NCBI GenBank assembly: GCA_041674405.1
Contig: JBAYVT010000001.1
Location: forward strand, 1-32,000
DNA length: 32,000 bases
Source of the DNA: Patescibacteria group bacterium
GTDB taxonomy: Bacteria; Patescibacteriota; UBA1384; XYA2-FULL-43-10
Reading direction: 5' to 3'
Part shown: positions 13,078 through 28,334 of the stretch, piece after piece
Position numbering within the stretch: the first letter of the stretch is position 1
Layout: the number at the start of each line of letters is the position of its first letter
Notes under the pieces: model-generated
Seen by the model: only the letters and a program-made list of their open reading frames with translations
What the model was told of the DNA's origin: nothing
Database searches by the model: none
Position numbers and translations under genes: made by a program

Positions 13078-15726
13078 CTATTTGGAAGTATAGCTGATTC
13101 CGGATTTCGCGGCGATTACGGCTTGTGCAGCGGCAAGTCTGGCGATTGGGACGCGATATGGTGAGCAGGAAACATAATTCATCTTTACTTTGTGGCAGAA
13201 GTGAATTGTGGTAGGATCTCCGCCGTGCTCTCCACAGATGCCGACTTTCAGATTCTTCTTTGATGATCGGCCTTTCTCGATCCCAATCTCAACCATTTTG
13301 CCGACACCGTCTTGGTCGAGAGTTTGGAATGGATCAGCGTCAAAGATGCCAATTTCCTTGTAAACTTTGATGAATTTGCCGGCGTCGTCGCGGGAGAAGC
13401 CCATTGTCATTTGGGTTAAGTCGTTGGTTCCGAAGGAGAAGAATTCAGCTTTCTCAGCGATCTCGTCTGCAGTTACAGCGGCTCGTGGAACTTCGATCAT
13501 TGTGCCAACCTTATAGTCGATCTTGGTTTTGTATTCGGACATGACTCGGGTAGCAGTTTCATCAACAACTTTCTTCTGGTTCTCAAACTCCTTGACATTG
13601 CCTACAAGCGGGATCATGATTTCCGGAACGATCTTAAATCCATCTTTCGCAAGTTCGCAAGCGGCAGAGATGATAGCTTCAGCCTGCATCTCGGTGATTT
13701 CCGGATATGTAATTCCGAGGCGGCAACCGCGGTGGCCAAGCATCGGATTGAATTCGTGCAAATCTTCAGAAACCTGTTTGATCTTGGATTCAGAAATACC
13801 GATTTTTTTCGAAAGAGCTTTGACATCCTCGTTTGTCTTTGGCAAAAACTCATGCAAAGGCGGGTCCAAAAGACGGATGGTTACCGGAAAACCCTTCATT
13901 TCGCGGAAGAGGCCAAGGAAATCTTCTTTCTGGAAAGGTAAGAGCTTTTTCAAGGCTTTTCTTCTTTCGTCTTCGGTATCGGCAAGAATCATCTGTTGCA
14001 TGAATGGAAGGCGCTTCTCGTCGAAAAACATGTGTTCGGTGCGGCAGAGGCCGATGCCTTCGGCGCCAAATTCTCGAGCGGTCTTGGCATCAGTCGGCGT
14101 GTCTGCATTGGTGCGAACTCCGAGGACGCGGGTTTTGTCAGCCCAGCCCATGAGAGTCTTGAATTCGGCTTTGATCTCCGGCTCGATTGTTTTGACCTCG
14201 CCAAGGATGACTTGGCCGGTAGAGCCGTTTAGGGCGATCCATTCCCCTGCTTTGACTGTATATGAACCAACAGTAAATTTCTTCGCTTTTTCATCAATCT
14301 TTATATCACCGCAGCCGGCAACGCATGTTTTGCCCATTCCGCGGGCAACAACTGCGGCGTGGCTGGTCATACCGCCGCGGCAGGTCAAGATTCCCTGTGC
14401 TGCGTACATGCCGTGGATATCATCCGGTGAGGTCTCAGCGCGGACCAGGACGACCTTTTCGTTGTCGCCAAGTTCGGCAGCGGTATCTGCGTCGAAAACG
14501 ACCTTACCGACAGCGGCACCGGGAGAGGCCGGAAGTCCCATTGCGATAACCTCAAGCGTAGCTTTCGGATCGATGACAGGGTGCAAAAGCTGGTCGATAG
14601 TTTCCGGTTCTAGCCGCATTACAGCTTCGTCTTCTCCGATCATTTTCTCTTTGACCAAATCAACAGCGATCTTGACAGCAGCTTGGGCAGTTCTTTTGCC
14701 GGTTCTGGTCTGTAACATGTAGAGCTTGTTTCTTTCGATGGTAAACTCAAAATCCTGAACATCTTTATAATGTTTTTCAAGTTTGTCTGTGATTGCCTTG
14801 AGCTCTGTAAATGCTTTTGGCATCTCCTTCTTGAGATCGGCTATCGGGTGCGGCGTGCGTACGCCGGCTACAACATCTTCGCCCTGTGCATTGGTAAGGA
14901 ATTCACCGTAGAACTCCTTATCACCAGTGGAAGGATTTCTAGTGAATCCGACGCCGGTGGCGCAGTCATCACCCATGTTGCCGAAGACCATTGCCTGGAC
15001 ATTTACGGCTGTTCCCAAATTGTGAGGAATGTTATTCAAGTTTCTGTAAGTATTGGCTCGGTCATTGCCCCAGCTCTCGAATACCGCTTTGTAGGCCATT
15101 TCAAGTTGTTTAGCCGGATCCTCTGGAAATTCTTTGCCGGTCTCTTTCTTGACCAATTTTTTATATCCGTCGATCACATCTAGAAGATCGTCGGCGGTGA
15201 GGTCGGTATCAAGTTTAGCACCGGCTTTGTCTTTGACAAGATCTAGAACATGTTCAAATTTGTCTTTGTCGATAGCAAGTACGACATTTCCGAACATCTG
15301 GATAAATCTTCGGTAGGCGTCGTGAGCAAATCGGGAATTCCCGGTAAGCTCGGCCATGCCTTTGACAGTTTCATCGTTCAAGCCAAGGTTTAGGATCGTA
15401 TCCATCATACCCGGCATCGAGAACTTGGCGCCGGAACGGACGGAGAGAAGGAGCGGATTTTTGGCGTCGCCGAATTTTTTTCCGGTTGACTTTTCAACTT
15501 TTGCAAGCATTGGTGCAAGCTCGGAGTCAAAGTCCTTCGGCAGTTTCTTGCCGTTGTTGTAATAGTAATTGCACATTTCGGTCGTGATAGTAAAACCTGA
15601 TGGGACCGGAACGCCTAAATTCGACATTTCGGCAAGGTTTGCGCCTTTACCGCCCAAGAGAGCTTTCATTTCCGCTTTGCCTTCGGCTTTTCCGTCACCG
15701 AAATAATAGATGTACTTCGTACTCAT
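13078..15726 (-). CDS. ppdK: Pyruvate, phosphate dikinase
   Basis: 882 aa with the N-terminal GGKGANLAEM, the phospho-histidine swivel motif GGMTSHAAVVARGMG and the C-terminal PEP-utilising motif VGICGEHGGDP. Confidence 0.97.
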   Translation of the reverse strand: MSTKYIYYFGDGKAEGKAEMKALLGGKGANLAEMSNLGVPVPSGFTITTEMCNYYYNNGKKLPKDFDSELAPMLAKVEKSTGKKFGDAKNPLLLSVRSGAKFSMPGMMDTILNLGLNDETVKGMAELTGNSRFAHDAYRRFIQMFGNVVLAIDKDKFEHVLDLVKDKAGAKLDTDLTADDLLDVIDGYKKLVKKETGKEFPEDPAKQLEMAYKAVFESWGNDRANTYRNLNNIPHNLGTAVNVQAMVFGNMGDDCATGVGFTRNPSTGDKEFYGEFLTNAQGEDVVAGVRTPHPIADLKKEMPKAFTELKAITDKLEKHYKDVQDFEFTIERNKLYMLQTRTGKRTAQAAVKIAVDLVKEKMIGEDEAVMRLEPETIDQLLHPVIDPKATLEVIAMGLPASPGAAVGKVVFDADTAAELGDNEKVVLVRAETSPDDIHGMYAAQGILTCRGGMTSHAAVVARGMGKTCVAGCGDIKIDEKAKKFTVGSYTVKAGEWIALNGSTGQVILGEVKTIEPEIKAEFKTLMGWADKTRVLGVRTNADTPTDAKTAREFGAEGIGLCRTEHMFFDEKRLPFMQQMILADTEDERRKALKKLLPFQKEDFLGLFREMKGFPVTIRLLDPPLHEFLPKTNEDVKALSKKIGISESKIKQVSEDLHEFNPMLGHRGCRLGITYPEITEMQAEAIISAACELAKDGFKIVPEIMIPLVGNVKEFENQKKVVDETATRVMSEYKTKIDYKVGTMIEVPRAAVTADEIAEKAEFFSFGTNDLTQMTMGFSRDDAGKFIKVYKEIGIFDADPFQTLDQDGVGKMVEIGIEKGRSSKKNLKVGICGEHGGDPTTIHFCHKVKMNYVSCSPYRVPIARLAAAQAVIAAKSGISYTSK

Positions 15727-19578: not shown

Positions 19579-19656
19579 GCCAAATACTTCGCCTAAATCC
19601 TAATTTCTAATTACTAATTTCTAAACATAATCGGAAATTGTTCATTCAATCATATA

Positions 19657-19683
19657 CAAAAAATGCCCCTTGGGCATTTTTTG
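19657..19683. terminator. Bidirectional rho-independent terminator between convergent genes
   Basis: AAAAAATGCCC-CTT-GGGCATTTTTT. Confidence 0.85.
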
Positions 19684-19698
19684 TATATTTAGCGTTGA

Positions 19699-19953
19699 TT
19701 ATGCGGCAAATAATTTGGTTCCTTCTTTGACCTTTTTGCTAACCTTCATTCCAACTTCGTCGCCTTTTTTTACCTCAGCTACATCCTCGTGGTCTTTCTG
19801 CATCGATTCCACTTTTTGGGTAAAGTCGGCACCATGGCCCATAAAATGAACTTCATCGCCATCTTTACAGCTTACCGAAAACTTTATCACCGCCACCCCG
19901 ATGTGGTCAAAATAGTGCGTTACTTCTCCGATCTCCTTTTCATCATTCGCCAT
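19699..19953 (-). CDS. Small translation-elongation-factor-like beta-barrel protein
   Basis: 84 aa. IGEVTHYFDHIGVAVIKF...GDEVHFMGHGADFTQKVESMQKDHEDVAEVKKGDEVGMKV resembles the stand-alone EF-Tu-domain-2-like proteins of archaea and CPR. Confidence 0.6.
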   Translation of the reverse strand: MANDEKEIGEVTHYFDHIGVAVIKFSVSCKDGDEVHFMGHGADFTQKVESMQKDHEDVAEVKKGDEVGMKVSKKVKEGTKLFAA

Positions 19954-20055
19954 ATGACTCCTTAGGTTAGAGACTAAGAATACATAAATATTATAGCATT
20001 GTTGTCAAACAAATCACTGTGCAAGTGAATATATCAATTATATTTTATTGCAGAG

Positions 20056-20084
20056 TTGACTACTATACAGAAATGTGTTAGAAC
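20056..20084 (+). promoter_or_regulatory. Sigma70-type promoter of GC-rich island 4 (plus-strand gene)
   Basis: TTGACT (20056-20061), a 17-nt spacer ending in TGTGT, then TAGAAC (20079-20084). Confidence 0.45.
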
Positions 20085-20125
20085 TGATCAGTGATTGTTA
20101 TCTACACGGAGGGGGTTTTGCTTCG

Positions 20126-20551
20126 ATGGCTGAGACGTACTTGTTTCGTGGCCGTCCGCATTGCCGGATTTCTGGTCTGGGTGTAGCGCACCTTAAGGCA
20201 AATGCCGGCAATACACTGGCGTACGTAAGGCTGGGCATCGTCCTCGAAGACGGACTGACGCAGGAGGGCGTCAGTGCTACAGGGCGGTACTACGACGGTG
20301 AAGGGAAAACAAGGGAACGCGGTCATGCAGACAATGCTAGCGTCATTACAGTTCTCGCGATGCTAAATGACACCTGCAGGAATCTCAGCCGCGAAGCGAA
20401 TGTCAAACATGCCCATTTCAACTTCGACGGTAAGGAAGTTGAGGTCGGCATTGAGTTCCATGCGCGCAGAAATGTCGGTCAGGCATTTTTGTCCAGCGTA
20501 GCGGATCTCTTCGAGGAGTCGTTTGCTGCCGTCAGTGCGGCGGTAGCCTAG
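20126..20551 (+). CDS. Orphan hypothetical protein (141 aa), GC-rich island 4
   Basis: The ATG at 20126 is downstream of GGAGGGGG (20108-20115), a rather long spacing. Composition is coding-like. No family recognised. Confidence 0.6.
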   Translation: MAETYLFRGRPHCRISGLGVAHLKANAGNTLAYVRLGIVLEDGLTQEGVSATGRYYDGEGKTRERGHADNASVITVLAMLNDTCRNLSREANVKHAHFNFDGKEVEVGIEFHARRNVGQAFLSSVADLFEESFAAVSAAVA

Positions 20552-20570
20552 ACGTGTGTGGGGGGAGAAT

Positions 20571-20606
20571 CAGGCGAGTGCTTTCGGGCGCTCGTCTGTT
20601 GGTTTT
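20571..20606 (+). terminator. Hairpin terminator of the 20126-20551 gene
   Basis: An 11-bp stem (CAGGCGAGTGC/GCGCTCGTCTG, two G-U pairs) with loop TTTCGG, followed by TTGGTTTT. Confidence 0.65.
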
Positions 20607-20714
20607 AAGATATTATTTTGTAAACTAAAATTATGATCTCTTGCAAGGAGATTATAGAAATATATAAAAAAATGATTTCGGATGCGCCAGTGCCTGTCGG
20701 GGCAAGACGCATAT

Positions 20715-21077
20715 TCAGCTCTCCTGGTCGAGCTCGAGGTTCTCGACCAGGGCCTGGAAGAGCATATCTCCAGGTGTCTGGGGACCCACATCTTTGCTGG
20801 TTTCGTAGAAGAAGCTATTGCCATCTTCCAGGGAAAGCTCCAGGTCAAGAACTCGTCGAAATTCCCCGTCACCATCGAGGTCAAGAATCTCGTACAAAGT
20901 GGTGATGAGGTCGGAGAGCTCTGATATATCGCAGAGCCGCTCCGGCATGACGAAACGCGAAGCCTGGAGTTGTGCCCGAATCTTGCTGACGAGCGACCGA
21001 TTACACCATGGCGACTCCTTAATGAACTCGTCAATGGCCATGTTGATCTTCACAGAGAGCGGTCTCTCTGGGATCAT
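20715..21077 (-). CDS. Orphan small acidic protein (120 aa) with a DxDxDG-like loop, GC-rich island 4
   Basis: The ATG at 21077 lies 9 nt after GGAGG (21091-21087 on the minus strand). The C-terminal half is strongly acidic (EILDLDGDGEFRRVLDLELSLEDG...ENLELDQES). It is convergent with the 20126-20551 gene. Confidence 0.65.
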   Translation of the reverse strand: MIPERPLSVKINMAIDEFIKESPWCNRSLVSKIRAQLQASRFVMPERLCDISELSDLITTLYEILDLDGDGEFRRVLDLELSLEDGNSFFYETSKDVGPQTPGDMLFQALVENLELDQES

Positions 21078-21154
21078 ACCTCAACACCTCCCTCATTTCA
21101 GGCTAGTACGACAAAAGTAGTATATAACAAAATATCAATTAATAGTACAGGTGA

Positions 21155-28249: not shown

Positions 28250-28334
28250 TGGTGCCGCAGCCCGGACTCGAACCGGGATGGATTTCTCCACACGATTTTG
28301 AGTCGTGCGTGTCTACCAATTCCACCACAGCGGC
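28250..28334 (-). tRNA. tRNA-Leu (anticodon CAA), CCA encoded
   Basis: The minus strand reads GCCGCTGTGGTGGAATTGGTAGACACGCACGACTCAAAATCGTGTGGAGAAATCCATCCCGGTTCGAGTCCGGGCTGCGGCACCA. It has a Leu-type D-loop (GGAATTGGTAGAC), an anticodon stem CACGA/TCGTG with loop CTCAAAA, a long variable arm TGGA-GAAA-TCCA and a T-arm CCCGG-TTCGAGT-CCGGG. There is one T-T mismatch in the acceptor stem. Confidence 0.9.

Follow-up and report, generated by a model that had tools for sequence, protein, structure and literature searches.

In the genome of a Patescibacteria group bacterium (assembly GCA_041674405.1; 929 kb in 7 contigs, 98.7% complete), the first 32,000 nucleotides of contig JBAYVT010000001.1 (C1:1-32000, here called the window) contain a patch of DNA at ~20044–21100 whose guanine-plus-cytosine (GC) content is 50–56%, against ~37% in the backbone. 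The patch holds two open reading frames (ORFs) that face each other: ORF A on the plus strand, encoding 141 amino acids, and the convergent ORF B on the minus strand, encoding an acidic protein of 120 amino acids. The patch is probably made up of two transcription units that are independent of one another, differ in history and each encode an orphan protein restricted to its lineage. Unit B (20683–21100) would be an old resident of the lineage, lodged at the 3′ end of an envelope-glycan operon (GT4-GT4-WecG) and lying on the same strand, and unit A (20044–20682) would be an autonomous, moron-like cassette composed of a promoter, a Shine–Dalgarno sequence, the 141-residue ORF and an intrinsic terminator. 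The convergent layout and the presence of two terminators would insulate each unit against the other and both against the promoter of the adjacent gene, bb84.

The contrast in composition is sharp: GC content is 0.50–0.56 over 20001–21000 and 0.32–0.38 in the flanks. The same DNA is present at 99.98–100% identity in two independent assemblies, a Joint Genome Institute (JGI) metagenome contig and a Logan assembly, and because these hold the same stretch the patch is not an assembly artefact or a chimera. The organism occurs in the samples JGI 3300037067 and SRR22315508. A preceding examination of the letters and their open frames, referred to below as the sequence-only reading, had described the two ORFs as genes with expression signals of their own, separated by an AT-rich spacer; all these features are present, with coordinates accurate to within a base or two, and both ORFs do look like real genes.

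ORF B and its syntenic relative

ORF B (20715–21077, minus strand) is predicted to encode a mostly helical protein with an isoelectric point (pI) of 4.2 and is the founder of a family of two members. An exhaustive phmmer search of 1.84 billion cluster representatives yielded one true relative, P0004 (E 5e-5), which is 40% identical to ORF B over residues 44–117 by BLASTP; these two sequences are the whole family among the representatives searched. A profile built from both found nothing more in an index of 5.8 billion proteins, 400 genomes of the phylum, viral contigs or GTDB contigs. Neither ORF B nor its homologue matches Pfam, NCBIfam, PHROGs or PADLOC, no PHROG match to ORF B lies below E 0.46, and ORF B has no paralogue in its own genome and no match in 60 relatives. 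When proteins are clustered at 90%, ORF A, ORF B and the flanking proteins are all singletons with no close strain variants. A further candidate relative of ORF B, the 775-residue repeat protein P0003, matches DGDGxxRRVL only and was dismissed as chance.

The gene for P0004 lies on a JGI metagenome contig of 987 bp (L029; sample 3300050015), which is the syntenic locus of a diverged relative. Read in the minus-strand orientation of the window, this contig carries the ORF B homologue, a gap of 132 nucleotides, bb84, a hairpin terminator and the C-terminus of a convergent DUF2207 gene. Between the two loci the product of bb84, a gene of 84 codons, is 73% identical and the DUF2207 C-terminus 84% identical. 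The frame of the ORF B homologue runs without a stop to the end of the contig, and the alignment extends to residues that precede the called methionine (VSTIRTSLQ with VSKIRAQLQ).

Composition and comparison both speak for a gene. The GC content of ORF B at the three codon positions is.60/.34/.67, a gene-like profile. The length of the open frame is not significant when set against dinucleotide shuffles (P 0.11). A codon model trained on seven Pfam-validated GC-rich genes of the same genome, which themselves score 0.30–0.47 bits per codon, gives ORF B a score of +0.31, the best of the six frames and on a par with the training genes. As the comparison with the homologue validates ORF B as a gene, it can be taken as certainly coding on these grounds.

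Overall, ORF B and its homologue share 39% identity and differ by an indel of 17 residues. Substitutions at codon positions 1, 2 and 3 number 36, 30 and 61, respectively; the proportion of nonsynonymous differences (pN) is 0.37, far below saturation, and that of synonymous differences (pS) is 0.84, which is saturated. The nonsynonymous divergence (dN) of ORF B amounts to 0.51, compared with values of 0.17 (bb84) and 0.13 (DUF2207 tail) in its neighbours, synonymous sites being saturated in all three genes. These values indicate that ORF B evolves 3–4 times faster than its neighbours under purifying selection. The features that have been conserved are MPERL, an amphipathic helix ELxDLIxxLYExLxL, EFxRxL, ELSLxDGN and a C-terminal FxAL(I/V)E. 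Net acidity has likewise been kept, the homologue having a pI of 4.9.

The comparison also bears on the origin of the GC excess. GC content at third codon positions (GC3) is 0.67 for ORF B in the window and 0.58 for its homologue at L029, against 0.47 and 0.42 for bb84. As GC3 is high in both lineages, the excess in ORF B is not evidence of recent import. The gene is older than the divergence of the two lineages, in which synonymous sites have reached saturation. The equation of GC-rich with freshly inserted does not hold for ORF B, a gene that is syntenic and GC3-rich in both lineages. ORF B has been inherited rather than recently transferred and has kept its GC3 excess despite saturated synonymous divergence. 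This excess would be either maintained or slowly ameliorating from a much GC-richer start, two explanations that two sequences cannot separate. A sharp GC-rich island in a genome of the candidate phyla radiation need not, as ORF B illustrates, represent recent foreign DNA.

The signals around ORF B are in keeping with a gene carried at the end of an operon. A Shine–Dalgarno sequence, GGGAGG, read directly from the minus strand at 21087–21092, precedes the ATG by 9 nucleotides. The gap between the WecG stop codon and the ORF B start codon (21078–21154, minus strand) spans 77 nucleotides at 35% GC, and neither a terminator-like site nor a good promoter was found in it. Because of this, and because ORF B shares its strand with the closely spaced genes of GT4-GT4-WecG, its transcript probably arises by read-through from that operon. 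Immediately after the stop codon stands a stem-loop (20683–20711, minus strand) that is conserved at L029 and folds alike at both loci, with energies of −15.9 kcal/mol in the window and −17.6 kcal/mol at L029 (z −2.6 and −4.1). At three pairs both partners have changed, namely A-U to U-A, U-A to G-C and G-C to U-A, and because pairing has been kept through these compensatory changes the stem-loop is best regarded as a functional RNA element of the transcript, putatively a terminator or an mRNA-stabilizing hairpin. Unit B would hence be read through from the operon, translated from its strong Shine–Dalgarno sequence and ended at the conserved 3′ stem-loop, yielding a soluble, acidic and largely helical protein of 120 residues.

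ORF A and the 639-bp segment

ORF A (20126–20551, plus strand; pI 6.3) is framed by a full set of predicted expression signals, and the sequence-only reading was accurate in assigning it a promoter with 17 nucleotides between TTGACT and TAGAAC and a strong terminator. The predicted sigma-70-like promoter (20056–20084, plus strand) was read directly from the sequence, with TTGACT at 20056–20061, a spacer of 17 nucleotides ending in TGT (an extended −10 feature) and TAGAAC at 20079–20084; a scan for consensus promoters omits it, as the scan demands a −10 hexamer with T as its sixth base. These hexamers are inferred to drive ORF A. A Shine–Dalgarno sequence, GGAGGGGG, also read directly, occupies 20108–20115 on the plus strand, 10–13 nucleotides before the ATG. 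An alternative GTG start at 20075 falls within the predicted promoter, and for this reason the ATG at 20126 is preferred. The intrinsic terminator (20571–20606, plus strand) consists of a 12-bp stem at 20571–20598 closed by a 4-nucleotide loop and followed by a T-run, and folds with −20.6 kcal/mol (z −3.4). Beyond it extends an AT-rich spacer (20607–20682; 21% GC), which contains the T-run lying 3′ of the ORF B stem-loop on the minus strand.

ORF A is probably a coding gene, as judged from its composition and frame. Its GC content by codon position (.63/.44/.59) is gene-like, three-base periodicity is strong, and its stop-free run of 163 codons is exceeded in only 0.95% of dinucleotide shuffles (P 0.0095). 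The codon model awards it +0.16 bits per codon; on the opposite strand the frame in the same register reaches 0.21, but stops interrupt it, its longest ORF being 74 amino acids. Single-sequence modelling with AlphaFold2 suggests, with low confidence (predicted local distance difference test, pLDDT, 49.5), a beta-beta-beta-alpha-beta-beta-alpha layout, in which the first 50 residues have a pLDDT below 50. No match to ORF A exists in Pfam, NCBIfam, PHROGs or PADLOC, and a sequence search of the PDB gave sub-threshold matches only. Neither a paralogue in its own genome nor a match in 60 relatives was found, nor a relative in the word-indexed search, GTDB contigs, viral contigs, phages or plasmids, nor in 400 genomes of the phylum, nor in all 44 genomes of the order.

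The relative's locus separates the two units. ORF A is absent from the syntenic site at L029, where ORF B occurs without it, and the aside in the sequence-only reading that the spacer might mark two separate units is borne out. Positions 20711–20683 of the window, the hairpin after the ORF B stop codon, align with L029 327–355, and positions 20043–19950, the bb84 promoter, align with L029 363–460. These conserved blocks lie 7 nucleotides apart in L029 and 639 nucleotides apart in the window, and from this spacing it follows that ORF A together with its promoter, its terminator and the AT-rich tail forms a discrete indel at 20044–20682. The segment measures 639 bp and has a GC-rich core from promoter to terminator at 20056–20606; the AT-rich spacer that completes it is likewise without counterpart in L029, and the bb84 promoter region marks the host side of the junction. 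No significant direct or inverted repeats were detected at the junctions (P about 0.2). The balance tilts slightly towards an insertion in the lineage of the window, because ORF A is a complete autonomous cassette without relatives. GC-rich orphan units can, as ORF A would illustrate, be gained or lost singly.

Further empty sites were sought among homologues of bb84, which are present in 25 of 60 relatives and at 62 metagenome loci; none of these shares neighbours with the window. Downstream of WecG, in 25 relatives, the region is variable and contains no recurring small acidic ORF. In several relatives at the level of the order, namely at the loci L127 (G011), L128 (G039) and L144 (G009), unrelated small GC-rich ORFs (57–61% GC) were observed just downstream of WecG. 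The position downstream of WecG may be a recurrent spot for the landing or retention of GC-rich units.

Several points weigh against the two-unit reading. It leans on a single syntenic relative, on a contig of 987 bp and without an outgroup, so that insertion and deletion are not polarized, and a homologue of ORF A could be present elsewhere in the L029 organism. The word-indexed search applied to ORF A missed the 40% identical homologue of ORF B, and as the exhaustive HMMER search covered ORF B and not ORF A, the orphan status of ORF A is less secure than that of ORF B. The codon score of ORF A, at 0.16, is at the low end and below that of its antisense register, and the structure models of both proteins are poor (pLDDT 47 for ORF B and 49.5 for ORF A). 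Lastly, a 10-nucleotide repeat at the outer edges of the patch fits a single ancient insertion of ORF A and ORF B together.

This last point is the basis of the alternative that fares best, namely that both genes entered once, in the common ancestor, duplicating ATATCAATTA, and that ORF A was later lost in the L029 lineage. The left copy of the exact direct repeat (20031–20040, plus strand) marks one outer limit of the patch and precedes the bb84 promoter, 78–87 nucleotides upstream of the bb84 start codon; the right copy (21132–21141, plus strand) stands upstream of ORF B, 55–64 nucleotides from its start codon. Each copy is 10 nucleotides long. Their placement exactly at both outer edges has a P of 0.005 in comparison with shuffled flanks, and the genes so bracketed are both GC3-rich. 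Genome-wide the motif is not enriched, with 7 copies against ~6 expected by our own estimate. Against a single entry it can be noted that an integrase, a transposase and terminal inverted repeats are all missing from the patch, that the repeat is not recognizable in L029 upstream of bb84, and that the AT-rich spacer and the separate terminators divide the genes; under either history ORF B works without ORF A in the relative. Target duplication is one possible origin of the repeat; alternatively, it may be a regulatory site that ORF B and bb84 have in common upstream. A joint entry is accordingly regarded as the less likely course, at roughly one chance in a few, and two units of separate history remain the preferred reading.

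It is rather improbable that ORF A is not a functional gene at all and represents a chance or decaying frame in what is left of imported, GC-rich DNA. The lack of a homologue in the searches made, the modest codon score with an antisense register that is as high, and the low-confidence modelling of the first 50 residues would all agree with such a remnant. They are opposed by the significance of the 163-codon stop-free frame, by the strong periodicity, by a promoter, Shine–Dalgarno sequence and strong terminator that are complete and correctly placed around the frame, and by a sequence that is identical in three assemblies.

The products of the two genes

The sequence-only reading was correct in calling ORF B a small and strongly acidic protein, as the computed pI and the charge counts agree: 24 acidic and 11 basic residues overall, with 16 acidic and 3 basic in the C-terminal half. 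The single-sequence AlphaFold2 model of ORF B has a pLDDT of 47, and its best Foldseek match an E-value of 2.7 with a template-modelling (TM) score below 0.32. Foldseek searches with the models of both proteins came back empty (TM at most 0.32), the models being too poor for a match to carry meaning. As the models are poor, any proposal that ORF B is a binding protein draws on composition and conservation only. As a committed guess, which we put forward as possible rather than likely, ORF B could be a binding protein, acidic and soluble, that is expressed together with the envelope-glycan operon. It might, with a similarly tentative standing, bind another macromolecule through the amphipathic helix ELxDLIxxLYExL and the ELSLxDGN turn. 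With low confidence, it would be neither an enzyme nor a calcium sensor; ORF A may, with equally low confidence, be an accessory protein.

Small acidic binding proteins include type II antitoxins and DNA mimics such as Ocr and ArdA, and acidity had led to the suggestion of an analogy with DNA mimics, anti-restriction or anti-CRISPR proteins. That ORF B is a DNA mimic, an anti-restriction protein or an anti-defence protein surviving as the relic of a mobile element is nonetheless improbable. The protein is small, strongly acidic and fast-evolving, traits typical of proteins engaged in genetic conflict, and acidity is the one property that favours the analogy; a location in a mobile element was not found. 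In two lineages with saturated synonymous sites ORF B has kept its place on the chromosome between housekeeping genes; it lies on the same strand as the glycosyltransferase operon and has no relatives in phages, plasmids or viral contigs. Nothing around it points to a phage, a plasmid or a defence system, and the fold search was uninformative.

The N-terminus of ORF B (PLSVKIN...NRSLVSKIRAQL) was considered as a possible ribbon-helix-helix domain. The lead failed its tests: it is unsupported by Pfam, by the PDB and by searches with the N-terminal fragment, and a six-frame search of the genome with the RHH_1 model at E up to 10 produced no match to ORF B.

A calcium-binding role for ORF B through a DxDxDG loop of the EF-hand or dockerin type, as the sequence-only reading had suggested for LDLDGDGEF (residues 65–73), has very little in its favour. 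The arrangement DLDGDG at residues 66–71 is uncommon by chance, D.D.DG occurring in only 0.3% of ORF B shuffles, and the single sequence gives three weak EF-hand matches in the PDB over residues 39–75 (E 0.2–0.8). These matches are gone when the two-sequence profile is used. In the homologue DLDGDG is replaced by RLGGHD, with D66, D68 and D70 becoming R, G and H, and all three aspartates are lost. The 13-residue PROSITE pattern PS00018, which calls for liganding residues at loop positions 1, 3, 5, 9 and 12 and requires position 8 to be hydrophobic, has no match as a regular expression in ORF B; on reading, DLDGDGEFRRVLD departs from it at loop positions 8 (F), 9 (R) and 12 (L). The Pfam models of EF-hands and dockerins give no match at E up to 5, and only a single motif is present, whereas a dockerin needs paired calcium-binding repeats. 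Given how rare the motif is in shuffles, ORF B might have gained a metal site in its own lineage, but nothing supports such a gain.

Equally poor are the prospects of a functional module, toxin/antitoxin-like or of the inhibitor–target type, in which acidic ORF B would neutralize ORF A. The genes are adjacent and both GC-rich, ORF B is acidic and ORF A near neutral, and the 10-nucleotide repeat brackets both. The sequence-only reading, which had proposed the pair, had made co-occurrence of homologues one of its tests: the homologues do not co-occur, as ORF B is found without ORF A at the syntenic L029 site, albeit in a single relative. The two genes converge and are terminated separately, and hence are neither co-directional nor co-transcribed; with this arrangement, and with a promoter or read-through source for each, they are not an operon. 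In addition, neither matches a toxin/antitoxin or defence family, and ORF A is not basic, unlike the usual toxins. ORF A and ORF B are not a toxin/antitoxin or inhibitor/target pair.

Genome setting and known systems

The patch is flanked by genes for the glycosyltransferase WecG, for bb84 and for a DUF2207 protein. There are no phage genes near it and no phage, plasmid or defence context or match; it is single-copy, and no integrase, transposase or terminal inverted repeats were detected at it. In the window, Rfam at the gathering threshold and ARAGORN revealed one structured RNA only, a tRNA-Leu at 28250–28334. No donor or relative could be named for ORF A or ORF B.

The neighbouring gene bb84 (19699–19953, minus strand) encodes a beta-barrel protein of 84 amino acids for which Pfam supplies only sub-threshold matches (Peptidase_U32_C and EF-Tu domain 2). 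Its homologues, at the relatives and metagenome loci counted above, are always in different neighbourhoods, and it is evidently a widespread, unannotated small beta-barrel protein of Patescibacteria. An exact look-up of the L029 bb84 protein returned only L029 itself. The host promoter and 5′ untranslated region of bb84 (19954–20043, minus strand) contain an extended −10 element, TGCTATAAT, at 19990–19998, and are the region conserved at L029 363–460. Between the convergent DUF2207 and bb84 genes, at 19652–19688, a perfect 17-nucleotide inverted repeat (ATATACAAAAAATGCCC / GGGCATTTTTTGTATAT) looks like a bidirectional terminator, and a hairpin occupies the equivalent position in L029 (728–751).

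The small size of the genome, its many glycosyltransferases and the presence of DUF2207 agree with its placement in Patescibacteria. The genome as a whole is compositionally uneven. It contains 142 GC-rich patches, which make up ~13% of the 929 kb, and as such patches abound the island described here is unexceptional in its genome. GC3 has a main mode at 0.35–0.40 with a tail, in which ~7% of the ORFs of at least 100 amino acids reach a GC3 of at least 0.59. The 62 ORFs with a GC3 of at least 0.57 are mutually unrelated save one pair. In a sample of 20 high-GC3 ORFs, 8 belong to a clear Pfam family, 1 has a weak zinc-ribbon match and 11 have no match. The identified members are a fusion of SAICAR synthetase and AIR carboxylase, an AIR-synthase-like protein, a methyltransferase, an M48 peptidase, an aminotransferase, a NUDIX protein and an HD protein: the high-GC3 class is a mixture of auxiliary enzymes, for example those of purine synthesis, and orphans. 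Purine-synthesis enzymes are found beside many orphans among the high-GC3 ORFs, as at C3:109215-110591 and C3:4109-5227, and resemble auxiliary metabolism that a reduced genome has acquired. A further patch of 52% GC (13847–14741) is situated inside an ORF of 882 amino acids (13078–15726, minus strand), which implies that compositional patchiness here reaches beyond orphan genes.

A broader reading, held more loosely than that of the locus itself and on present evidence somewhat short of an even chance, is that ORF B, and perhaps ORF A, belong to a distinct, hitherto undescribed class of Patescibacteria genes: self-contained, fast-evolving orphans whose GC3-rich codon usage is actively maintained. 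Selection or a biased process would then keep GC3 high over the long term although the genomes are AT-rich, and high GC3 would not be the fading trace of import. If this were true, the GC excess would mark a functional property of the transcript or of its translation, for example a separate expression regime. Should the pattern hold more widely, such loci would provide material for asking what keeps genes GC-rich and would serve the study of small, fast-evolving proteins in ultra-small symbiotic bacteria. Taken by itself, the locus is ordinary: it adds two more proteins of unknown kind and no new system.

Comparison with known systems places the two units at different distances from established types. 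In common with the EF-hand loops described by PS00018 and by the Pfam EF-hand and dockerin families, ORF B has D-x-D-x-D-G, at residues 66–71 and after a helix; it differs from them in that the rest of the 13-residue pattern fails, no hidden Markov model matches and the loop is not conserved in the homologue. ORF B shares small size, net negative charge and fast evolution with type II antitoxins and with the DNA mimics Ocr and ArdA, but it lacks an operon partner, a DNA-binding domain such as ribbon-helix-helix, a mobile-element context and evidence from fold.

Unit A finds a parallel in the morons of phages. Morons, a concept associated with Hendrix and Juhala, are autonomous promoter–ORF–terminator units of deviant composition inserted between phage genes. 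Unit A likewise comprises a single ORF with its own putative promoter and intrinsic terminator, has an odd composition and is present in one relative and absent from another. In contrast to phage morons, it is located outside any prophage, its neighbours being housekeeping genes on the chromosome of a Patescibacteria genome of 0.93 Mb, and has no phage relatives. The kind to which the patch belongs, that of lineage-specific, moron-like accessory units, is known; the two proteins encoded here are new.

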